64,000 bases of DNA from Acidimicrobiia bacterium (GCA_035292685.1 DATDPP010000079.1:102300-166299); one strand, 5' to 3'. Positions 1-10,722 are shown, counted from the stretch's first letter. Notes: generated from the sequence alone by a model not told the origin. Program-made: numbers and translations.

Positions 1-2
1 TC

Positions 3-356
3 CACACCTGGAGGAGCCGGTTCGACATGGAGTTCGAGGTCACCGTCGATCGATCCGATGAAACCTGGCATGGCGATGTCGGTGTCGTCACCGGCTTGCT
101 CCCCCGGGTCTCCTTTGATCCGACCAGGACGGTCGCCATGCTTTGCGGGCCCGAGATCATGATGAAAGTGGTTGCCAACGAGGTGACGAAGCGCGGGGTG
201 GCGCCCGAGAACATCTACGTGAGCGTGGAGCGCAACATGAAATGTGCCATCGGGTTCTGCGGTCACTGTCAGTTCGGTGCAGACTTCATGTGTCGCAACG
301 GCCCGGTGCTCCCCTATTCACGGCTGGGCGACCGTCTGCGGGTGCCGGAGCTATGA
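3..356 (+). CDS. NiFe hydrogenase gamma/diaphorase-type subunit (PyrK-like FAD/NAD(P) oxidoreductase), C-terminal fragment; 5' end lies outside the window
   Basis: The frame is open from the window edge. The C-terminal Cys cluster [18 protein letters not shown] is typical of the 2Fe-2S site in PyrK/sulfhydrogenase-gamma proteins. The stop overlaps the next start (ATGA). Confidence 0.75.
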
Positions 357-1129
357 CCACCTCACGCCAGAAGCTGGCCGTCTGGAAGTTTGCCTCATGC
401 GACGGGTGTCAGTTGACGCTCCTCGACGCCGAGGATCATCTCCTGGACATCGCCGGCGCCATCGACATCGCTTACTTCCCCGAGGCCACCCGCGGCGAGG
501 TCGAAGGGCCGTATGACCTCTCACTGGTGGAAGGCTCCATCACGACTCCTCATGACGCCGAGAGGATCGCCATGGTCAGGGCGACATCGAGGACTGTTGT
601 GACCATCGGGGCGTGCGCCACCGCAGGGGGAATTCAGGCCCTCCGGAACTGGGCGAACGTCGACGAGTTCCTGACCATCGTCTACGCACAACCCCAATAC
701 ATCGAGACGCTCACAACATCGACTCCCATCTCCGACCACATCGATGTCGACTTCGAGCTTCGAGGTTGCCCCATCTCCAAGCATCAGCTGCTGGAGGTGA
801 TCGACGCCTTCCTTCATCGGCGTGCGCCCAACATCCCACGACACAGCGTCTGTGTGGAATGCAAGCTGCGCGGCACCAACTGTGTCATGGTGGCCCAGCA
901 GATACCCTGCATGGGGCCGATCACCCAGGCCGGATGCGGCGCCATCTGCCCCGCATACGACCGTGGCTGCTATGGCTGTTTCGGGCCATCCCAGTCGCCG
1001 AATATCGATTCTCTGGCGTCGTGGTTTGCGCAACTCGGGGTCTCCGACGGCGACCTGGTTCGGGCGCTGCGCACCTTCAACGGCTATGCCCCCGAGTTCC
1101 GAGAGGCGAGCGAGGCCTATGAGCGTTGA
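353..1129 (+). CDS. NiFe hydrogenase small (delta) subunit, NuoB-like, cytosolic type without TAT signal
   Basis: N-terminus [19 protein letters not shown] and further Cys motifs ([33 protein letters not shown]). ATG 353 sits in the same frame as the longer ORF 143..1129 and overlaps the upstream stop. Confidence 0.85.
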
Positions 1130-2411
1130 ACGCGAGATCGCCGTCGACTACCTGGCCCGGGTGGAGGGGGAGGGGGCGATGTATCTCAAGCTGAAGGGGG
1201 ACGAGGTGATCGACCTCAGATTCAAGATCTTCGAGCCGCCGCGGTTCTTCGAAGCGTTCCTGCGCGGTCGCCGGTTCTCCGAGGCGCCCGATATCACCGC
1301 CCGCATATGCGGCATATGCCCCATCGCCTATCAGACCAGCGCCTGCAATGCGATGGAATCCGCCGCCGGTGTCCGGCTGCCGGGCCCGCTTCGTGCCCTG
1401 CGCCGGCTGATCTATTGCGGCGAGTGGATCGAGAGCCATGCCCTCCACGTTTTCTTCCTCCACGCCCCTGACTTCCTGGGATATGAGAGCGCCATCCGGA
1501 TGGCCGCCGACTTTCCGGAGCAGGTGCAGATGGGTCTCCGGCTCAAGAAGATCGGCAATCAGATCATGGCCCTCGTGGGGGGCCGGGAGATCCACCCGAT
1601 CAACATCCGGGTTGGCGGCTTCTTCCGGGTCCCCACCAAGCAGGAGTTGCGGTCCCTGGTGCCAGACCTGGAGTGGGCCCTGGAGGCTGCGCTGGCCACG
1701 ACCAGATGGGTATCTGGATTCCCCTTCCCCGAGTTCGAGCGGGACTACGAGTTCGTGGCCCTTCAGCACCCCGACGAGTACGCCATCCATGAGGGCCGCA
1801 TTGCGTCGAACCGAGGCCTGAACATCAGCGTCGACGAGTGGGGCGAGTACTTCGAGGAGAGTCAAGTCTCCTGGTCCAACGCCCTCCACGCCCGTCGCAA
1901 GAACGGAGGCTCCTATCACCTGGGGCCGATGGCCCGCTATTCGCTGAATTCCGAGCAGCTCACCCCTGTGGCCCGAGGCGCCGCCGGGGAGGCCGGGCTC
2001 GGTTCCAGGTGTGGCAACCCCTTCCGGAGCATCATCATCAGAGCCGTTGAGATCGCATTCGCCTGTGAGGAAGCGCTCCGCTTGATCGACGCCTACACCC
2101 AACCCGAGGCCCCCTACGTCGAGGTCGAGCCGCGGAATGCTGTGGGTCATGGCGCCTCGGAAGCCCCCCGGGGAACTCTGTACCACCGCTACGCGATCGA
2201 CTCCGAAGCGCTCATCACCGAGGCCCACATCGTGCCCCCTACCTCACAGAATCAGCTGAGTATCGAAGACGACCTTCGCGCCTACGTTCCGGGACGCGCC
2301 CATCTGCCGGATGATCAGCTTCAGTGGCAGCTGGAACAGGCGATCCGCTGTTATGACCCCTGTATCTCCTGCGCCACTCACTTCCTCGACCTCACCGTGG
2401 ACCGGGAATGA
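1119..2411 (+). CDS. NiFe hydrogenase large (alpha) subunit, group 3b-like
   Basis: N-terminal [10 protein letters not shown] and C-terminal DPCISCATH nickel-binding motifs. Start ATG 1119 ([19 protein letters not shown]) lies inside ORF 822..2411 and overlaps the small-subunit gene end. Confidence 0.9.
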
Positions 2412-2833
2412 GACGGGTCATGATCGGGGTCGGGAACCCGACGCGTGGTGACGATGCCGCCGGCCTCGAGGTCGCCCGCAGAGTGCGCTCGGTGGAGACT
2501 CACCAGCAATCCAGCGGCTCATACGAGCTGATGGATGTCTGGGAGGGAGCGGACGAGGTGATCATCGTCGACGCAGCAAGGTCTGGTGCCCCTGCCGGGA
2601 CGATCCACCGTTTCGACGCCCATGATGAGCCCCTTCCCGGAGGGATCCTGGCGACCAGCACCCACTCGGTGGGGGTGATGGAGACAATCGAGATGGCCCG
2701 GCACCTGGGACGTCTGCCCGAGCGGGTCGTGGTGTACGGAATCGAGGTCTCGAGCTTGACACCAGGCGCAGGCCTCTCAACCGTGGTCGAAGACGCAGTG
2801 AGTGAGCTGGTGATGGAGATCGATCGTGCATGA
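2408..2833 (+). CDS. hydrogenase maturation endopeptidase (HycI/HoxW family)
   Basis: MIGVGNPTRGDDAAGLEVA N-terminus and about 140 aa length. The start overlaps the large-subunit stop. Confidence 0.85.
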   Translation: MRRVMIGVGNPTRGDDAAGLEVARRVRSVETHQQSSGSYELMDVWEGADEVIIVDAARSGAPAGTIHRFDAHDEPLPGGILATSTHSVGVMETIEMARHLGRLPERVVVYGIEVSSLTPGAGLSTVVEDAVSELVMEIDRA

Positions 2834-3086
2834 GAGGGGCATAGTGCCCGACCTCATGGGGCGGGTCGAGGAAGAGGTCGATGGGGCCCAGGCACCCGTC
2901 ACGAGTCTGAGGTTTCGAGTGGGGGCGTTGTCCGGGATCCACCCCGAATCGCTGAGGGAAGACGCCGTTCGCTACGCCTTGGAGAAGTGGGGTTATTCGC
3001 CAAACGTGGAAGTCGAACAGTCGGTGGATCCCACCGACCCCAATGCACTCGGCGTGCTCCTAGTCTCGATCGGGCTCGAGAGCTGA
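2826..3086 (+). CDS. hypA: HypA-like nickel metallochaperone lacking the zinc-finger domain
   Basis: A GTG start gives an M-H-E N-terminus (the HypA Ni-binding motif). The HypA-like core reads LRFRVGALSGIHPESL. The protein is only 86 aa and has no CxxC...CxxC pair. Confidence 0.6.
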   Translation: MHERGIVPDLMGRVEEEVDGAQAPVTSLRFRVGALSGIHPESLREDAVRYALEKWGYSPNVEVEQSVDPTDPNALGVLLVSIGLES

Positions 3087-3089
3087 AAA

Positions 3090-3320
3090 ATGTGTGTCGC
3101 CATCCCAGGCCGAGTCGTCCGCATCGGAGAGTTGAGCACGACCTCGATCCCGGGCAGGGTGTCGATCATTGGCACGGAACGGGACGTCGACCTGGTCATG
3201 GTCCCCGATGCCATGGTCGGGGATTACGTGCTGGTCCACTCGGGGTACGCCATCAAAGTCATCCCCAAGGAGCGAGCCGTCGAAACCTTGGTGCTGCTCG
3301 GGATCGACGCAGCCGACTGA
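3090..3320 (+). CDS. hypC: hydrogenase assembly chaperone HypC/HupF
   Basis: MCVAIPGRVV N-terminus with the essential Cys2; 76 aa. Confidence 0.85.
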   Translation: MCVAIPGRVVRIGELSTTSIPGRVSIIGTERDVDLVMVPDAMVGDYVLVHSGYAIKVIPKERAVETLVLLGIDAAD

Positions 3321-3807
3321 ACAGCGCGGGGCGAGCCCACACGTAACAACCCGCGTTGACCTCCCAGCGCGCCAACTCTCCGAGCAGGAACGCAGGCCCG
3401 CCAGCTCCTCCAGGGTGGAGGCGTGACCGATCCCACCCGGTGCTCGTCGTCATTTCCGCAGGCGGAAACCCCCGGCGACGCCTTGCCTGCAGGTCGCGGT
3501 TGGCGATCGGTCGACACGGTCCGTCGCTCGCCACCCAATCAGTCGGGGAGTGCGTCCACCGGCGTGGAGGGCTTGTCTCGCAGTCGTCGGATCAACGGCC
3601 GTTCGGCGCGGCCCGGCTACCCAGCACGGGATGAGAGGCTGGGTGGCCGCCGAGGCGACCGGCGTTGCCACGGGGTGCAGCCGATGCCATGTCCCATTGG
3701 AAAGAAAACCGGCCAGAAGTCCCAATCTTGCCGACGAACGGCCCTAGGGGGAAAGAGCCTTGTACTGCAAGGTTGCGGATGGCAGCACGGATAGGAGGAA
3801 TGTCACG

Positions 3808-6405
3808 GTGGTCCCCGTATCGCGAAGGGCGTTTCTCAAGGGAACGGCAGTGGTCGGCGGTACCCTTGCCGCCTCCCGATTCCTGTTTGAGACCCTTGAC
3901 GCCGTAGCTGGGGCCGATGCCCTGGCCCTGGCGCCGTTCGAGGACCGGGTGTTCACCACGTGCTGGATCGGCAAACAGGACTGCGGAATGACCGCCCGTC
4001 GCATCGATGGGAGGGTGGTCAAGTTCGAAGGGATGGCGGGTCATCCCCGGAATGACGGGACGCTCTGTCCCAAGGGACAGGCGCAAATCATCTCCATCTA
4101 TGACCCGAATCGGGTCAAGACCCCGTTGATCCGGACCAACGCCAAAGGTGTGAGTGGAGAGTGGCGACAGGCATCCTGGGACGAGGCGCTTCAAGTGGTG
4201 GCCGATGAGGTGAATCGGGTTCGGGCCGAGGATCCGTCGCTGGTGTTGTGGCAGAAGGGGAGGTCCAAGTCGGAAGCCATATACGACAACGCGTTCACCA
4301 AGGCAATCGGCTCGTCAAAACTGGGGCACGGCGCGTATTGCTCGGACACCGGGTATCGAGCCCTCGAGTACACGCTCGGCCTCCATGGGGTGCTCAACCC
4401 TGAGCTGGTCCACAACCGCTATCTGCTGGCCTGGGGATGGAACCTCACCAATGCCGGCGGTAACAAGTACTGCTGGATCGTCTGGCCCCGTCAGATGCTC
4501 GAAGCGCGCGAAAAGGGCCTCAAGATCGTTCACATCGATCCCCGTCTGCGGGCGGCGGGCCCATTTGCTGACCAGTGGGTCCCACTGAGACCGTCCACCG
4601 ACCTCGCCTTGGCTCTGTCCCTGTGTCATGAGCTGATCGCGCAGGGATACCTGGACCGTCCCTATCTGACCAAATACACCAACGCCCCCTATCTCGTGGG
4701 CAAGGACGGTCTCATACTCAAACAGACGGTGGGCGAGGGCGACGATGCCGAAGAGGTCGCCCTGGTATGGGACCTGGCGACCGGCACCGGCAGGCTCGCC
4801 ACCGAAGCAACCGAGCCGGCCCTCGAAGGCGAGTACACCGTCAACGGTCAAACCTACAAGACGGCCTTCGAGCTGTTCAAGACCCATGTCGAGGACTACA
4901 CCCCGGAGTGGGCCGCGGACATCTGCGGTATCGAAGCCACTGTGATCAGCCAGATCGCATCGGAGTTCGGCGAGAACGCCCAGATCGGGGCCACGACCGT
5001 CATCGACGGAATCGAGGTGCCCTACCGGCCGGTGGGGATCATGGCCTACCACATGGCACAACAAGAACTGGGGTTTCAGGCCCTTCGGGCAATGACGATG
5101 GTCACGATGTTGGTCGGCGCGGTGGGGGCGGTCGGGGGGCAGTTGGCCGACACCACTTGGAAGATCCACAAGAACTATGCCGCCTTCGAGGAGCTGACGG
5201 TCAACGACCCGCCGTACGACTTCACACTGAAGGGATCAAGGTACTTCCCGATAAACACGGGGTTCCCGGGGATGGTCGCCAAGGTGATGCAGGACCCGGC
5301 GAGATACGGGGTCGAGAAACTTCCCAAGGTTGCGATCCTCCACCACGTCAACCCGGTTCTCGCCTTCACCTCCCAGCCGGACTTCCTCGAGTCCTACAAG
5401 AAGTTCGAGCACGTGACCGTGATCAGCCCGTGGATGTCGGAGACTGCGGATCTGTTCGCCGACGTGGTCCTGCCCGCGTCGACCATCGAGAAGTTCGAAG
5501 GCCCGCTCTCGGCAAGCGACGGTTACATCGATGCCCAGGTGCTCCGCTTGCCGCCCATGGACCCCCTCTTCGAGTCGCGAGGCGAGGTCGACATATATCT
5601 CGATCTGGCGGAACATATCGGAGTCCTCAACGGCGCAGATGGCTACATCGATCAGATCAACGTCGCGCTCGGGCTGGTCGACACACCGTTCGCTCTTCCC
5701 GACGGGCCCAGACCCGAGGTGCGAGACATCTTCGATCGGTGGGCGAAGTCCCAAGGGCTGAGCGGGATCGACCACTTCGAGCAAAACGGCATTTGGGTCA
5801 AGGGACTGATCCCACCCACCTCGACCTACGGCTACGTGACCGACCCGCCTTTCGGCGGGGCAGTGCACCGGCTCTATGGGGAGAGCCTGCTCAAGGCGCA
5901 GCGGCTCATGCAGGAAAAGGGCGCTGAGGAGATCTATTACCAGGATTATCTGCCCTTCCCAACCTGGCGAAGCCCAACCATGGACAGCTCGCCGCCGGAG
6001 TACGAGTTCTATCTGATCAGCTACAAGCTGGTCGAGCACAAACAGTCGAGAACCACTCTGATCCCCCTGCTCACCGAGTTGAGCGGGAAGCAGCGGATCG
6101 AGATCAACACCGCAACCGCCCGCCGGCTGGGCATATCCGATGGCGACGAGGTGGTGGTCGACTCCCACAATGCCATCACCGGCGAGACGCGGTCGCTCAC
6201 CACGGTGGCTGCCCTGACCGAAGGGATCCGCCCAGACGTGGTGGGAATGCCGCATCACTTCGGCTCCTGGTCCCACCCGGCCAGCCGTGATCTTGGCCCA
6301 ACGCCCAACGAGGTGTTCTTCACCGGTGAGGGGTACATGGGTCAAACCGCCGACGCCTCCTTCCAGGTCAAGGTCAAGATCTCGAAAGCCGGAGGTGACT
6401 CGTGA
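3808..6405 (+). CDS. TAT-exported molybdopterin (bis-MGD) oxidoreductase catalytic subunit, Psr/Phs/Ttr-like; substrate unknown
   Basis: GTG 3808 sits 9 nt after AGGAGG (3793-3798) and gives MVPVSRRAFLKGTAVVGG, a twin-arginine signal. MopB-type core with GRVVKFEGMAGHPRNDGTLCPKG and a candidate Mo-ligand Cys in GHGAYCSDTG. The longer ORF starts at TTG 3760. Confidence 0.85.
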   Translation: MVPVSRRAFLKGTAVVGGTLAASRFLFETLDAVAGADALALAPFEDRVFTTCWIGKQDCGMTARRIDGRVVKFEGMAGHPRNDGTLCPKGQAQIISIYDPNRVKTPLIRTNAKGVSGEWRQASWDEALQVVADEVNRVRAEDPSLVLWQKGRSKSEAIYDNAFTKAIGSSKLGHGAYCSDTGYRALEYTLGLHGVLNPELVHNRYLLAWGWNLTNAGGNKYCWIVWPRQMLEAREKGLKIVHIDPRLRAAGPFADQWVPLRPSTDLALALSLCHELIAQGYLDRPYLTKYTNAPYLVGKDGLILKQTVGEGDDAEEVALVWDLATGTGRLATEATEPALEGEYTVNGQTYKTAFELFKTHVEDYTPEWAADICGIEATVISQIASEFGENAQIGATTVIDGIEVPYRPVGIMAYHMAQQELGFQALRAMTMVTMLVGAVGAVGGQLADTTWKIHKNYAAFEELTVNDPPYDFTLKGSRYFPINTGFPGMVAKVMQDPARYGVEKLPKVAILHHVNPVLAFTSQPDFLESYKKFEHVTVISPWMSETADLFADVVLPASTIEKFEGPLSASDGYIDAQVLRLPPMDPLFESRGEVDIYLDLAEHIGVLNGADGYIDQINVALGLVDTPFALPDGPRPEVRDIFDRWAKSQGLSGIDHFEQNGIWVKGLIPPTSTYGYVTDPPFGGAVHRLYGESLLKAQRLMQEKGAEEIYYQDYLPFPTWRSPTMDSSPPEYEFYLISYKLVEHKQSRTTLIPLLTELSGKQRIEINTATARRLGISDGDEVVVDSHNAITGETRSLTTVAALTEGIRPDVVGMPHHFGSWSHPASRDLGPTPNEVFFTGEGYMGQTADASFQVKVKISKAGGDS

Positions 6406-7148
6406 CCCGGTATGTGATGGCGGTAGACCTGAACCGCTGCCAGGGGTGCCGGGCGTGTGTCGAAGCCTGCAAAATCGAGAACAACACGCCCAGTGCAGTC
6501 TTCTGGATGCATGTCTTCCGGCTCGAAGAGGGCGAGTACCCGGACACCAAGATGTCCTTTCTCCCCCGGCCCTGCCAGCACTGCAACAACGCACCCTGTG
6601 TCAAGGTGTGCCCGGTGGGGGCGCGCTACAAACGCGAGGACGGGCTAGTGCTCACCGACTTCGATCGGTGCATCGGTTGTCGCTACTGCGAGGTGGCCTG
6701 TCCGTACGGGGTCAACTTCTTCAACTGGCGGAATCCCGACGAGGCCTGGGACGAGTACCAGGTGCCGTTCGACGACCCCGACCTGATGCCGGTGACCGGT
6801 GGCGTCATCCCCTCCTACAAGAACCCCGACCATGATCGTCTCCACGGCCCCGAGCAACGTCTCACCTCGGGAAGTGCCCACTTCAAAGGGGTCATGGAGA
6901 AATGCACGTTCTGCGTGCACCGGGTTGAGCAGGGTCTGCTCCCGGCCTGCGTCGACACCTGCCCTGTCGGTGCGCTCAAGTTCGGCGACATCGAAGACGA
7001 GGGCAGCCCGATCTCGACATTCTTGCGCAACAAGGAGAGCTTCCAACTTCTCGAAGAGCTGGGCACCGACCCAAGCGTCGTCTATGTAGGCGGCACACCT
7101 CCCACCAGCCACGCCCGCGAGATCGAACGACCCCTGACCGGAGTATGA
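6402..7148 (+). CDS. 4Fe-4S ferredoxin-type electron-transfer subunit (PsrB/DmsB/HybA-like)
   Basis: Four Cys clusters: CQGCRACVEACK, CQHCNNAPCVKVCP, CIGCRYCEVACP, CTFCVHR...CVDTCP. The start overlaps the catalytic-subunit stop. Confidence 0.9.
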   Translation: MTRYVMAVDLNRCQGCRACVEACKIENNTPSAVFWMHVFRLEEGEYPDTKMSFLPRPCQHCNNAPCVKVCPVGARYKREDGLVLTDFDRCIGCRYCEVACPYGVNFFNWRNPDEAWDEYQVPFDDPDLMPVTGGVIPSYKNPDHDRLHGPEQRLTSGSAHFKGVMEKCTFCVHRVEQGLLPACVDTCPVGALKFGDIEDEGSPISTFLRNKESFQLLEELGTDPSVVYVGGTPPTSHAREIERPLTGV

Positions 7149-7149
7149 C

Positions 7150-8439
7150 ATGGCAACCACGCAAGACATGGTGAGTGACCGGCTCCCCCAGGGAGTTGGT
7201 CGCTGGAGCAGGGGATGGTTGCTGTTCATGGCGCTCGCCGCCATTGGGGTCGCCATCGGTGTGATCGGATGGGCAATCGAGCATGACCAGGGCATGGCCG
7301 CAACCGGGATGCGCGATCTGGGAACGATGGGCGGCGCCACTTGGGGCGTCTACATCTCCATGGTCGTCTACTTCGTCGGCGTCAGCTTCGCCGGCATAAC
7401 CGTGGCCGCACTGATTCGCCTCTTCAACCTGGAGCATTTGAAAGGGGTCGCCAGGATGGCCGAGCTTCTGACCGTGGTGGCGCTGCTTCTCGGCGCTCTT
7501 GCCATCGTGGTCGACCTCGGACAACCTCTCAGGGGGCTGGTCAACCTGTTTCGTTATGCCAGGCCCCAGTCCCCGTTCTTCGGCACCTTCAGCCTGGTGG
7601 TGTCCGGCTACCTGTTCTCCAGCCTCGTCTACCTCTATCTGACTTCACGACCCGATGCCGCCCGGCTCGCGGAGAGCCCCTCGCGTCTACAGCCCCTCTA
7701 CCGACTGTGGGCGGCGGGATACGAACCCACGGTCGATCAGCGGGCCCGTGACCGCAAAGCCACCTTCTGGCTAGCCTTGGCCATACTGCCGCTGCTCATC
7801 GTTGCCCACTCCTCACTCGGGTTCGTCTTCGGTCTCCAAGTTGGTCGTCCTGGGTGGTTTGGAACCCTGCAGGCTCCGGCGTTCGTGGTACTGGCCGGAG
7901 TCTCGGGCATCGGCCATCTCATCGTGCTCGCCGCGTTGGTGCGCCGCGTGCTCCGCCAGGAGCACCGAATCGGGATCGAGGCGTTCACCTGGCTCGGTCG
8001 ATTCCTCATGCTGCTGCTCTTCGTGTATCTGTACTTCGTGGTGGTGGAGATCTTCACCAGCATCTATCAGCCCACCACGACCGAGCAACGCATCAGCGAT
8101 GCACTGCTCACCGGGAGGTATGCGTGGATCTTCTGGGGGTCGGTCGCCGCCCTGGTGCTGCCAGCCTTCGGGCTGGCTTGGATGGCCGTCACCAGGAAAT
8201 GGCGAATCGGTTGGATGGTGATTATGGGTCTGATCGTCAATCTGGGGGCAATAGGAAAGCGCTACCTCGTCGTTGTCCCGTCCGAGACCCATGGACAGCT
8301 TCTGCCCTACCCGATCGGGACTTACGCCCCCAGCCTGGTCGAGTACGCAGTGCTCATTGGCCTGTTCTCACTGGGCGCCTTGCTCATCGGGGGGTTCATG
8401 AAGCTGTTCCCGATCGTCGAAATGGAGGAGACGCCGTGA
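7150..8439 (+). CDS. NrfD/PsrC-family polytopic membrane quinol-interacting subunit
   Basis: 429 aa of hydrophobic helices. Position and order after the Mo and FeS subunits are typical of CISM complexes. Confidence 0.85.
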   Translation: MATTQDMVSDRLPQGVGRWSRGWLLFMALAAIGVAIGVIGWAIEHDQGMAATGMRDLGTMGGATWGVYISMVVYFVGVSFAGITVAALIRLFNLEHLKGVARMAELLTVVALLLGALAIVVDLGQPLRGLVNLFRYARPQSPFFGTFSLVVSGYLFSSLVYLYLTSRPDAARLAESPSRLQPLYRLWAAGYEPTVDQRARDRKATFWLALAILPLLIVAHSSLGFVFGLQVGRPGWFGTLQAPAFVVLAGVSGIGHLIVLAALVRRVLRQEHRIGIEAFTWLGRFLMLLLFVYLYFVVVEIFTSIYQPTTTEQRISDALLTGRYAWIFWGSVAALVLPAFGLAWMAVTRKWRIGWMVIMGLIVNLGAIGKRYLVVVPSETHGQLLPYPIGTYAPSLVEYAVLIGLFSLGALLIGGFMKLFPIVEMEETP

Positions 8440-8651
8440 CCAGACGTTCGATCATCACGGCCGCCATGATCATCCTCGGTGCGGGTCTCATGGTGTTCGC
8501 GTACTTCGCCGGCGCCGCCCCCTGGTGCAACAACGCGGTCGAGTGCAGCAACCCCCGTCTGGAATGGTCACCGGCCATCTTCGTGGCCGGCGTGGTGATC
8601 GCCTTTTCCTCTGCCCTCTACTACTCGGTCGCCAAGGACCGGAGGAAGTGA
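8436..8651 (+). CDS. small two-helix membrane protein; possible extra subunit of the Mo-enzyme complex
   Basis: GTG 8436 overlaps the nrfD-like stop (GTGA). The 71-aa product has two hydrophobic stretches and CNNAVEC. It is translationally coupled on both sides. Confidence 0.5.
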   Translation: MTRRSIITAAMIILGAGLMVFAYFAGAAPWCNNAVECSNPRLEWSPAIFVAGVVIAFSSALYYSVAKDRRK

Positions 8652-9304
8652 GCGCAAGCGACCTGGCCCGCCTCCGGCAGGGCGCCTACAGGCTGATAGG
8701 CGCGGGTTTTGCCCCGCCCCAACCCGACCGATCGGAGTTGATCGTTGGGTCCATTCCGGTTCTGGCCGATCTCGGTCTCTTCGACTACTCCTTCTCTCTG
8801 TACCTCGTCGACTACGCCCGGGCTCTGGCTGCGGATGACCCGGGAGAGCTAGCCCCCGCCTACATGGCGCTGTTCGAGGTAGGTGCAGGCGGCGCAGCGT
8901 GCTCGCCCGCCGAGTCGGCTTGGCTGGCCGGCCCTAACTCCAGTGAGGTCGCGGTGATTCTCTCCGATCTCCGACGTAGCTATCTCCGCTACGGCCTGCG
9001 CCCTTCTGATTCTCGATCCGAGAGCATCGATCATGCGACGGTCGAGTTCGACGTGATGGCGTCGCTTTGTGGCATCGAGGCAGAACAGCGAGCAGCCGGG
9101 CGACCGGTCACTCGGACAGTTGGCCACCAGATCGAGTTTCTCGACAACCACCTGGGTAGATGGCTGCCCCTCCTGACCAAAGCAGTCGTGCGTCACAATG
9201 GCCATCCGACCTACACCGCGCTGGCTTTGGCCGCACATGCCTTGGTGATTCATGATCAGGAGCTTCTGGCTTTGATCGACGAGCAGGAACCGAGCTCACC
9301 ATGA
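8648..9304 (+). CDS. TorD/DmsD-family redox enzyme maturation chaperone
   Basis: GTG 8648 overlaps the upstream stop. DHATVEFDVMASL and HLGRWLP motifs resemble the TorD family. The gene sits in the Mo-enzyme operon. Confidence 0.7.
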   Translation: MSASDLARLRQGAYRLIGAGFAPPQPDRSELIVGSIPVLADLGLFDYSFSLYLVDYARALAADDPGELAPAYMALFEVGAGGAACSPAESAWLAGPNSSEVAVILSDLRRSYLRYGLRPSDSRSESIDHATVEFDVMASLCGIEAEQRAAGRPVTRTVGHQIEFLDNHLGRWLPLLTKAVVRHNGHPTYTALALAAHALVIHDQELLALIDEQEPSSP

Positions 9305-10722
9305 CCCAGATCCTGCTCTGCTCGGATCACCAGACCCCGGCCGTCGGGCAACATGTCCGCGTCGTCGGCGGCCTCTGTTACGACCCATATGCTCTGGCTT
9401 CGCTCCCTGATGGAACACAGCACTTGGTGATCGGGCTCCATCGAGACGACGCCGACAAGTCCATGTTCCAATCATCGATGCGGCGGATCGGACTCGACCC
9501 CCTCGGTGTTGGGGTAGTAGACCTAAACGGCATCACGGACCAGCGAGCGCTGACCGCGACTCTCGCCGGTGCCGTTGCCCGAACCGAAGCCTTCCCCGGG
9601 GCGACGCCAGAACAGGCGAAACTAGCGCCAGGCGGTCGCGTCTCGCGTCGGGGGTTGCTCTCGGCTGCGGCGCCCATATCCATCGGCGCCCCTTCAATCG
9701 ACACCGAAACCTGCGTGGCCGACCAGGGATGCCGGGCGTGTGTCACCGCGTGTCCGGTCGACGCCCTGACATGGAATGGCGGCTCGGTTTCCTACGACAA
9801 GACGATATGTGTCGCCTGTGGTATCTGCGTCACCACCTGCCCGGTGGGTGCGGTGGTCAACCCGACAGTGACCTTTCAGGCCATCGAGGCTCAGATCGCT
9901 GCCCTGATCGGGGCCTACGGCGAACCTGTCGGGATTCGCTACCAGTGTCGCGGCGCCCCCCAGGCCCGCCATCAAGAAGGCTGGCTCAACGTCGAGGTGC
10001 CGTGCACCGGAATGCTCACAGCGGGATGGCTGTTAGCGCCGCCGGCCATGGGTGCCGCCGCCACCGATGCGATCCCATGCGGGGAGTCAGGCTGTCCATT
10101 GGGCAATGACGATCGGATTGCGTCGACGGTAGCTGATGCTAGGGCGATCCTCGAGGCGCTTGGTTGGGACAAGGATCGCGTCGGCCGCGACTCCGTCGCC
10201 TCGTTCGCACCCCAACCGCCGCCGTCCGCAACCGGCGGTCGGATCTTCGGGCCGGGGATGGAGCACCGGGTGATAAGCCGCCTGGCGTCGATGGTTCAGA
10301 CCGACTCCGCGGCGGCTTCCCTGGAGTCAACGCCGCTGGGAACAGTGGCCATCGACCCGGCCACGTGCACCGCATGCCGGATGTGCGCCCAGATCTGCCC
10401 CACGGATGCCCTGCACAGCAGCGTCACCGACGACATTGTCATCGACTTCGACCCCCGGCTCTGTGTGGCATGCGGTCAATGCTTGAACATGTGCCCCGAG
10501 ATCGACCGTGGTGCCATCACCATGTCGATGAGGTTCGACCTCGCCGCCTGGGCGAGGGGACGAATGGAAGTGAGGCGCGATCCTGTCCCACGATGCGAGA
10601 GCTGTGGGAAACCGATCGCACCATCAGCGATGCTGGAGCGGATTACATCGATGCTCGGACCGGAATACTCGGCGACGGCGGCCCTTCTCAACACACGGTG
10701 TCTCGACTGCCGTGGCCGCTGA
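9301..10722 (+). CDS. multi-domain Fe-S protein: two 2x[4Fe-4S] ferredoxin modules, a central MvhD/FlpD-like Cys region and a C-terminal Cys4 element
   Basis: CRACVTACP / CVACGICVTTCP and CTACRMCAQICP / CVACGQCLNMCP motifs. Central QCRG...VEVPCTGML...PCGESGCPLGND. C-terminal CESCGKP...CLDCRG. The start overlaps the TorD-like stop. Confidence 0.75.
   Translation: MTQILLCSDHQTPAVGQHVRVVGGLCYDPYALASLPDGTQHLVIGLHRDDADKSMFQSSMRRIGLDPLGVGVVDLNGITDQRALTATLAGAVARTEAFPGATPEQAKLAPGGRVSRRGLLSAAAPISIGAPSIDTETCVADQGCRACVTACPVDALTWNGGSVSYDKTICVACGICVTTCPVGAVVNPTVTFQAIEAQIAALIGAYGEPVGIRYQCRGAPQARHQEGWLNVEVPCTGMLTAGWLLAPPAMGAAATDAIPCGESGCPLGNDDRIASTVADARAILEALGWDKDRVGRDSVASFAPQPPPSATGGRIFGPGMEHRVISRLASMVQTDSAAASLESTPLGTVAIDPATCTACRMCAQICPTDALHSSVTDDIVIDFDPRLCVACGQCLNMCPEIDRGAITMSMRFDLAAWARGRMEVRRDPVPRCESCGKPIAPSAMLERITSMLGPEYSATAALLNTRCLDCRGR

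Follow-up and report, generated by a model that had tools for sequence, protein, structure and literature searches.

The first 10,722 nucleotides (nt) of the DNA analyzed here carry a cytosolic [NiFe]-hydrogenase operon and, directly after it, an operon for an exported molybdenum (Mo) enzyme, which raises the question of whether the two encode a single respiratory machine. The whole stretch, hereafter the window, is 64,000 nt long and comes from an Acidimicrobiia bacterium (GCA_035292685.1, DATDPP010000079.1:102300-166299). It corresponds to C79:102300-166299 of the assembly that we refer to as G000 (2.47 Mb, 98 contigs, 97% complete), and the nearest relatives of its proteins are all found in Acidimicrobiia metagenome-assembled genomes (MAGs). 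An earlier note on this DNA, made from the sequence alone, had described the two gene sets on the same strand with 487 nt between them, and this description was borne out by an open reading frame (ORF) listing and by family scans. The note had also read the juxtaposition as a combined module for respiration of sulfur with H2 or NAD(P)H. We examined gene content, topology signals and the conservation or non-conservation of each neighborhood and conclude instead that the hydrogenase operon and the Mo cassette are probably two independent units lying side by side. Their adjacency would then be specific to this lineage and would not define a conserved functional unit.

The two operons are interpreted as two units and not one machine because they are neighbors only in this genome. 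The comparison set for the class consisted of 151 Acidimicrobiia species genomes, and a threshold of E ≤ 1e-50 was applied to homologues of the Mo catalytic subunit. The hydrogenase large subunit was present in 36 of these genomes and a Mo homologue in four, of which just one besides the window genome is close (61% identity). In the other three genomes with a Mo homologue, the hydrogenase and the Mo gene are located on different contigs or 790 kb apart. The Mo subunit was found in none of 15 genomes of the same family. Ten related hydrogenase loci contain the same eight-gene operon, colinear with that of the window, and no cassette.

The Mo cassette was then followed outside the class. Across species genomes, 414 relatives were matched, of which the 80 best loci were fetched; the resulting set comprises 83 loci, 82 of them distinct. 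These loci span Acidimicrobiia, Nitriliruptoria, Gaiellales, Solirubrobacterales, Chloroflexota, Methylomirabilota, Nitrospinota, Bacillota and several archaeal orders, with Thermoplasmata/Methanomassiliicoccales among the archaea. A tblastn search of the 83 loci with the eight hydrogenase-operon proteins gave no match, and the hydrogenase-operon genes were found at 0/82 distinct cassette loci within a flank of up to 10 kb; at least 3 kb of upstream flank was available in 61 of the 82 and 10 kb in 41. On long contigs, the three closest relatives, with 87, 83 and 71% identity, share the six-gene set but are preceded by unrelated genes, namely an MFS transporter, Zip/OsmC/DsrE genes and PFOR/DHODH/CMD genes, respectively. 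Given the lack of adjacency at the cassette loci and a hydrogenase operon that is conserved without the cassette, the combined H2/NAD(P)H-sulfur module that had been suggested is not supported.

The cassette itself holds together across these loci. After the Mo gene, the iron-sulfur (FeS) subunit is colinear in 81 of the 83, the NrfD anchor in 69, the small membrane protein in 50, the TorD chaperone in 64 and the polyferredoxin in 54. Genes for a PhnD-family periplasmic binding protein, a HAMP/HisKA_3 kinase and a NarL/LuxR regulator are located directly upstream in 17-27 of the 83 loci (L022, L023, L026, L047, L057 and L081 among them), and other loci are preceded by a CMD-family gene, MobA or MobB. 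The sensor-regulator layout shows that the cassette normally has its own regulation, and the ligand of the PhnD-type binding protein would probably reveal the substrate of the cassette enzyme. The earlier note had stated that its module would fall if the Mo subunit belonged to a clade with independent regulation and a known, unrelated substrate. Independent regulation was indeed seen, since many relatives carry their own regulators, while a clade with such a substrate was not. Synteny around the insertion site is suggestive only: the P-type ATPase encoded 3' of the cassette has 28-36% identical counterparts near two related hydrogenase operons, and a GerM-like gene is found 1 kb after hypC in one related operon. 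Cassette copies with 56-63% identity occur in Thermoplasmata/Methanomassiliicoccales, Methanofastidiosia and Hecatella MAGs (L041, L045, L046, L051, L055 and L092), which implies either recent transfer between domains or mis-binning.

Three observations weigh against the independence of the two units. Neither a sigma-70-like promoter nor an intrinsic terminator was found in a scan of positions 2800-4000; this result is uninformative, and read-through co-transcription across the gap is thus possible. The window cassette has no adjoining sensor-regulator genes, unlike many of its relatives. Finally, a 3b-type large subunit was found anywhere in the genome in 17 of 36 cassette carriers compared to 35 of 150 genomes of the class (Fisher p = 0.007), and this enriched co-occurrence indicates that the two are connected in some way by ecology or physiology, probably through a low-oxygen lifestyle.

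All three would fit a situation in which the operons are biochemically separate and belong to a co-regulated low-oxygen (hypoxia/dormancy) island, with the cassette, which would have arrived without sensor genes of its own, read through from the hydrogenase operon or co-induced with it. Genes for a universal stress protein (USP) and Hsp20 just 3' of the cassette point the same way, as does the induction of the mycobacterial 3b hydrogenase by hypoxia. We consider co-regulation of this kind unlikely. The gap, which would form the leader, has no conserved counterpart in front of the closest cassette relatives, and adjacency in one genome is equally expected from a chance insertion. A molybdenum cofactor (Moco) or other riboswitch was also sought in the gap and was rejected: Rfam gave nothing at E ≤ 1, and the closest relatives do not share the gap sequence.

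A single dedicated module carrying electrons from H2 (or NAD(P)H) to sulfur or another chalcogen is very unlikely, given that neither the 82 other cassette loci nor any other hydrogenase locus examined shows the adjacency. The shared strand, the short gap and the absence of a detected terminator would agree with such a module, as would the enriched co-occurrence. MvhD is a hydrogenase-associated module, and the cassette polyferredoxin has an MvhD-like segment; however, this protein also accompanies the cassette in genomes with no hydrogenase nearby and, therefore, does not appear to be a hydrogenase adaptor. Topology leaves no direct electron path between the two enzymes either, since the hydrogenase works with NAD(P) in the cytoplasm and the Mo enzyme is exported and linked to quinone. 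The precedent would be Acidianus ambivalens, where SreABCDE is encoded near a hydrogenase operon, the one known pairing of a hydrogenase with such an enzyme (PMC8551704, PMC5317093, PMC8076601). The kinds of genes in the cassette match sreABCDE (PMC8551704, PMC5317093), but the Acidianus precedent relies on a membrane-bound uptake hydrogenase and not on a 3b enzyme.

With two independent units as the favored explanation, the juxtaposition does not amount to a new H2-sulfur respiratory module, and annotators should not infer one. As a juxtaposition it is ordinary: a cassette that moves laterally has come to lie beside a conserved operon. The hydrogenase operon, comprising the genes for the beta subunit, a cyclic nucleotide monophosphate (cNMP)-binding protein, the gamma, delta and alpha subunits, the protease, mini-HypA and HypC, would have been inherited vertically within Acidimicrobiia, and the six-gene cassette would have been acquired laterally and landed next to it. 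By analogy with characterized 3b enzymes, the cytoplasmic hydrogenase would link H2 to the NAD(P)H/NAD(P)+ couple within the cell. The Mo subunit, whose Mo or W would be held by a bis-pyranopterin guanine dinucleotide (bisPGD) cofactor and a Cys ligand, would leave the cytoplasm along with its four-cluster FeS partner by twin-arginine translocation (TAT). The exported pair would dock on a heme-free quinol/quinone subunit of the NrfD type with about 10 helices and on a 71-amino acid (aa) membrane peptide. The TorD-like chaperone, and probably the polyferredoxin as well, would work on the cytoplasmic side, either prior to export or at the inner membrane face. Most likely, the cassette exchanges electrons between the menaquinone pool and a substrate outside the cell, which would be a compound of sulfur, arsenic or selenium or some other oxyanion. 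If electrons from H2 or NAD(P)H reached the cassette, they would do so indirectly, by way of the general respiratory chain.

The genes of both units are all encoded on the plus strand, according to the ORF listing and Pfam and NCBIfam scans. As read from the genome, the first gene of the hydrogenase operon precedes the window and encodes an AsrA/HydB-like FeS beta subunit (372 aa, Fer4_22); the gene for the cNMP-binding protein comes next. The gamma gene starts 504 nt before the window, and its C-terminal 117 residues are encoded at 3..356. Gamma is a FAD/NAD(P)-binding, PyrK/AsrB/HydG-like subunit, and the part within the window matches Pfam DHODB_Fe-S_bind and, partially, the NCBIfam models AsrB, ShyC and HydG. 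The small (delta) subunit is located at 353..1129 (258 aa; Oxidored_q6 81 bits, HydD 166 bits, ShyD 161 bits). Orthologues with 65-77% identity occupy the same operon slot in 10 related genomes. The large (alpha) subunit follows at 1119..2411 (430 aa). In line with the earlier note, which had seen no TAT signal on the small subunit, this subunit has no signal peptide, its N-terminus being without a twin-arginine (RR) motif, and the large subunit carries RICGICP and DPCISCATH. The latter motif is followed by a cleavable nine-residue tail, FLDLTVDRE. Both motifs are invariant in 10 large-subunit orthologues, and the ratio of non-synonymous to synonymous substitution rates (dN/dS) against the window copy is 0.09-0.32, with dS saturated. 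Because the motifs that hold the Ni-Fe site do not vary and dN/dS is in this range, the hydrogenase is kept by purifying selection.

The matches of the large subunit, the alpha-beta-gamma-delta set and the missing signal peptide together support a group-3b-type assignment for this enzyme. Among NCBIfam models, the two for Pyrococcus sulfhydrogenase alpha subunits, ShyA (250 bits) and HydA (225 bits), scored above FrhA (136 bits) and VhuA (129 bits), although the archaeal equivalog cut-offs were far from reached (250 vs 700). In a search of the PDB, the top two matches were the alpha subunit of Pyrococcus furiosus sulfhydrogenase I (SHI; 222 bits) and the cytosolic hydrogenase of Thermococcus kodakarensis (211 bits). 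Lower scores were obtained with MvhA (168 bits), the 475-aa NiFe large subunit 7t2r (161 bits), NAD-reducing HoxH (154 bits) and periplasmic/group 1 enzymes (113 bits or less). The previous assignment to a group 3b-like enzyme thus held up, with sulfhydrogenase alpha subunits ahead of those of groups 3a, 3c and 3d and all four kinds of subunit present. Group 3b has already been reported to be common in Acidimicrobiia (PMC11697166, PMC12008989), including in HydDB-based surveys (PMC12008989). The P. furiosus sulfhydrogenase I (HydBGDA; PDB 9nez, 9e15) and the T. kodakarensis enzyme (PDB 5yxy) share the four-subunit cytoplasmic plan of the window hydrogenase, with an AsrA-like beta, a PyrK/AsrB-like gamma and a NuoB-like delta subunit. 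They are also the best full-length matches of its alpha subunit, which has both CxxC pairs. In contrast to these two systems, the window operon has an extra cNMP-binding gene, the genome is without HypD, HypE and HypF, and genes for DUF6390 and an EamA-type transporter adjoin the operon.

An intergenic spacer of exactly 487 nt (3321..3807) separates the hydrogenase operon from the cassette. The Mo gene occupies 3808..6405 (865 aa), beginning with a GTG start at 3808 behind a GGAGG ribosome-binding site, and matches Pfam Molybdop_Fe4S4, Molybdopterin and Molydop_binding. Its product has a TAT signal peptide that begins MVPVSRRAFLKG and contains the twin-arginine motif SRRAFLKG, and a TAT-like motif was called in 76 of 115 close homologues. 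The FeS subunit (6402..7148, 248 aa) contains 16 Cys, grouped into four cluster motifs, and lacks its own signal peptide. It matches Fer4_11 and related Pfam families, while its scores with ArrB (205 bits, cut-off 450) and DsrO (195 bits, cut-off 200) remain below the cut-offs. The NrfD-family anchor (7150..8439, 429 aa; Pfam NrfD 106 bits) has about 10 hydrophobic helices by hydropathy only. Its best NCBIfam matches are weak and are to DsrP and HybB, both of which are 10-helix types, so that it is more like these than like the 8-helix PsrC (anchor types per PMC8076601). With Molybdopterin/Molydop_binding, Fer4_11 and NrfD all above their Pfam cut-offs in one operon, the cassette encodes a complex iron-sulfur molybdoenzyme (CISM) with an NrfD-type anchor.

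The Mo operon had been described as these three genes; their presence stands but the extent does not, since three more coupled genes follow. The first encodes a 71-aa protein with two hydrophobic helices by hydropathy and no Pfam match (8436..8651). This protein is specific to the cassette and occurs at the same position in 50 of the 83 related loci and in a Natronorubrum cassette. Next are a TorD/NarJ-family chaperone (8648..9304, 218 aa; Nitrate_red_del 64.6 bits, DMSO-reductase type II chaperone 62 bits with a cut-off of 152) and a 473-aa polyferredoxin (9301..10722; Fer4 families, FlpD 20.2 bits with a cut-off of 22.3). The cassette is translationally coupled: successive genes are joined by 4-base overlaps, except for the FeS and NrfD genes, which are 1 nt apart. 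In the polyferredoxin, two 2x[4Fe-4S] modules flank the four-Cys MvhD/FlpD-like segment, and a CxxC...CxxC pair is found at the C-terminus. A total of 26 Cys were mapped. The protein has no N-terminal signal peptide, also matches the C-terminal region of HdrA2 and is the last gene of the cassette in 54 of 83 loci. At window positions 9637-9675 (residues 113-125), about 110 residues in, it contains an internal twin-arginine-like stretch, RVSRRGLLSAAAP. This stretch looks like a relic signal peptide and suggests that an N-terminal domain was fused onto a ferredoxin that was once exported.

The class of the Mo enzyme was approached through family models, solved structures and conserved motifs. 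The predicted architecture of a TAT-exported Mo subunit with FeS and NrfD partners was found, along with a Cys ligand for Mo as in PsrA: the segment GHGAYCSD aligned with PsrA ...SLCTA (Cys173-equivalent), and this Cys is conserved within the clade. Membership in Psr/Phs proper was not supported. The Mo subunit scored under every NCBIfam cut-off, with PhsA the best (234 of 694 bits), ahead of the DmsA type (150 of 778), ArrA (134 of 1600) and TtrA (46 of 1750). The PhsA model aligned only over residues 4-292, the N-terminal third, and true Phs-like relatives score 447-472 bits. The best solved relatives, Thermus thermophilus PsrA (2vpw, 119 bits) and Shewanella ArrA (110 bits), aligned mostly over residues 48-293. 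Ten cluster representatives were likewise all under every NCBIfam cut-off. Cluster members bear generic names only, and automatic pipelines give the family varying labels (SoeA, selenocysteine dehydrogenase or a generic oxidoreductase). An SoeABC sulfite dehydrogenase was rejected because the twin-arginine signal SRRAFLKG is present here, while the Soe catalytic subunit faces the cytoplasm and has no TAT signal (SoeAB orientation as in PMC8076601).

The site for the FS0 cluster is atypical. Its motif, C-W-I-G-K-Q-D-C...C, has three Cys, with Gly in place of the second canonical Cys. CWIGKQDC was found in 115/115 close homologues and in the seven nearest representatives of clusters at 50% identity. 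Among 117 distant relatives of similar length, canonical CxxCxxxC was the commonest motif (54), and 47 had no recognized motif. Judged by these sequence features, the enzyme would work like an exported, quinone-linked, Cys-ligated molybdoenzyme of the Psr/Phs/Arr type, and it falls outside every named lineage. The Cys-ligated Psr/Phs/Arr group acts on sulfur intermediates and on arsenic and selenium oxyanions (PMC7331816).

PsrABC/PhsABC (T. thermophilus PDB 2vpz family; Salmonella PhsA NF012032) is the best match of the window enzyme in structure and by hidden Markov model. The TAT-exported, Cys-ligated Mo-bisPGD subunit, the four-cluster FeS subunit and the heme-free NrfD-family anchor are shared. 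Unlike in PsrABC/PhsABC, the window Mo subunit is about 100 residues longer, with only the N-terminal ~290 residues aligning well. FS0 has three Cys and not four, the anchor has about 10 helices and not 8, and three extra conserved genes follow the anchor. The Cys-ligated clade is also shared with ArrAB(C)/ArxAB(C) (PDB 6cz7; PMC7331816), and the FeS subunit has ArrB as its best match. An ArrA/ArxA identity was nevertheless rejected on the scores for ArrA (134 vs 1600) and ArrB (205 vs 450). The genes upstream of related cassettes, which encode a PhnD-type periplasmic binding protein and a two-component system, recall aioXSR/arxXSR/arrXSR (PMC5908839). In contrast to the Arr/Arx XSR systems, their regulator is of the NarL/LuxR type, and ars genes are near only 2 of the 83 cassette loci. 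This low number also led us to reject a general arsenic link, despite the arsR and ArsC-like phosphatase genes beside the Natronorubrum copy.

That copy is found on a megaplasmid of Natronorubrum bangense JCM 10635, a cultured haloarchaeon (NZ_CP031306.1, 685961-694059). It has the same six-gene order and the CWIGKQDC motif, and its Mo subunit is 33% identical over the full length. The polyferredoxin there is larger (701 aa), and arsR, the ArsC-like gene and mobA are upstream. SreABCDE of A. ambivalens was compared by published gene content only and is similar in having a TAT-exported Mo subunit, an FeS subunit, an NrfD-like anchor with 9-10 helices, the chaperone-like SreE and SreD (PMC8551704, PMC5317093, PMC8076601). 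The Desulfurella amilsii paper implies that A. ambivalens SreD bears a 4Fe-4S domain (PMC8551704, PMC5317093). Unlike the window anchor, SreC has been reported only from archaea, and the Acidianus partner is the membrane-bound uptake hydrogenase (PMC8551704, PMC5317093, PMC8076601). The Mo cassette represents a widespread and so far unstudied family, which has an atypical FS0 site and was matched 414 times in species genomes of bacterial and archaeal phyla. Its substrate could bear on the cycling of sulfur, arsenic or selenium in sediments and groundwater.

The other part of the locus that departs from known systems is the maturation of the hydrogenase. The earlier note had listed only hypA-like and hypC as maturation genes. 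A HycI/HoxW-type maturation endopeptidase is encoded as well, at 2408..2833 (141 aa; Pfam HycI 56 bits, TIGR00072 106 bits with a cut-off of 47). The HypA-like protein that follows (2826..3086, 86 aa) is truncated: residues 1-45 match and keep the N-terminal Ni-site region (M-H-E), and the zinc-finger domain and all Cys are gone. It scored 24.9 bits with Pfam HypA (cut-off 28.9) and had no NCBIfam match, and its orthologues are recognizable in 3 of the 10 related operons. The HypC/HupF-type chaperone is located at 3090..3320 (76 aa, N-terminus MCVAIPG; Pfam HupF_HypC 73 bits, TIGR00074 64.6 bits with a cut-off of 48). A variant of positions 2211-3301, 81% identical in nucleotides, was found on a separate 2.2-kb contig of the same bin (G000:C42:1-2152). 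It covers the end of the large subunit, the protease, mini-HypA and hypC, after which come DsrE-like and TusE/DsrC-like genes (83% identity to C47:31224-32264) in place of the Mo cassette. The C42 contig is either from a co-binned sister strain with a different junction or chimeric.

The hypBDEF genes had been expected elsewhere in the genome. This expectation was refuted: the 97%-complete assembly yielded no HypD, HypE or HypF, and HypB is absent too. The models for HypD (PF01924), HypF (TIGR00143) and HypE (TIGR02124) gave no match above cut-off in the window genome, and a tblastn search of it with HypD, HypE and HypF from a relative in the class recovered an acylphosphatase fragment only. 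HypD was detected in 18 of the 151 class genomes, and the 36 genomes with a 3b operon were divided into 15 with HypD and 21 without. The 21 HypD-negative genomes include assemblies of 2, 2, 6, 8 and 9 contigs. HypE and HypF were also absent from the 20 HypD-negative relatives, and both were present in 6/6 HypD-positive controls. HypB was absent in 26 of 27 class genomes tested, the HypDEF-positive controls included, and does not discriminate because it is missing regardless of HypD status. The operons differ in layout as well: in two HypD-positive genomes (G080 and G088), hypF, hypC, hypD and hypE come directly after the protease gene, whereas in the HypD-negative relatives the operon ends at hypC and genes for DUF6390 and an EamA-type transporter adjoin it.

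In the window genome, the genes for DUF6390 (251 aa) and the EamA-type transporter (313 aa) are located on the minus strand at G000:C79:98454-100146, divergent from the beta-subunit gene and 2.1-3.8 kb before window position 1. DUF6390 (PF19927) was found in exactly the 21 HypD-negative hydrogenase genomes and in one fragmented assembly in which no 3b operon was detected. It was found in 0/18 HypD-positive class genomes (including the 15 with the hydrogenase) and in 0/14 control organisms. Among the 36 hydrogenase genomes, DUF6390 and HypD are thus perfectly mutually exclusive (21/0/0/15, Fisher p = 1.8e-10).

Four Cys are invariant in DUF6390. An AlphaFold model based on 67 sequences had a pLDDT of 84 and a pTM of 0.86, compared to a pLDDT of 34 for a single-sequence model. 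It consists of a helical N-domain without PDB relatives and a C-terminal oligonucleotide/oligosaccharide-binding (OB) barrel with a helix. A Foldseek search of the model against the PDB gave no match at E ≤ 0.001. For the OB domain, T. kodakarensis HypC (2z1c) and ribosomal uS17 were about equal (E ~0.05-0.08), with a target-normalized TM-score of 0.55 for HypC, and an hhalign comparison of DUF6390 with HypC was weak (E = 0.0018 over 28 columns). A likeness of the modeled domain to HypC is, therefore, plausible. DUF6390 was mentioned in no paper of the literature searched.

To our knowledge, the Fe(CN)2CO part of the [NiFe] cofactor is considered to require HypC, HypD, HypE and HypF in all cases. 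We tentatively propose, with more doubt than confidence, that this hydrogenase lineage builds an active [NiFe] center without HypD, HypE and HypF, by way of HypC, the protease and mini-HypA together with DUF6390 and the EamA-type transporter and, as a separate matter, that the Mo cassette represents a respiratory enzyme family that is new and has three Cys at FS0. A precursor for the [NiFe] center might be imported by the transporter. With a large, selectively maintained hydrogenase lineage that is without HypDEF and always accompanied by DUF6390, a second route to the [NiFe] cofactor becomes a directly testable question.

One further observation was made outside the window. An 855-aa SufB-like ORF is located on the minus strand at about 92270-94840 of the same contig (G000:C79), 7.5-10 kb before the window. 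Its flanks are typical of SufB, and a middle segment ending in ...VHNS gives the appearance of an intein-like interruption.

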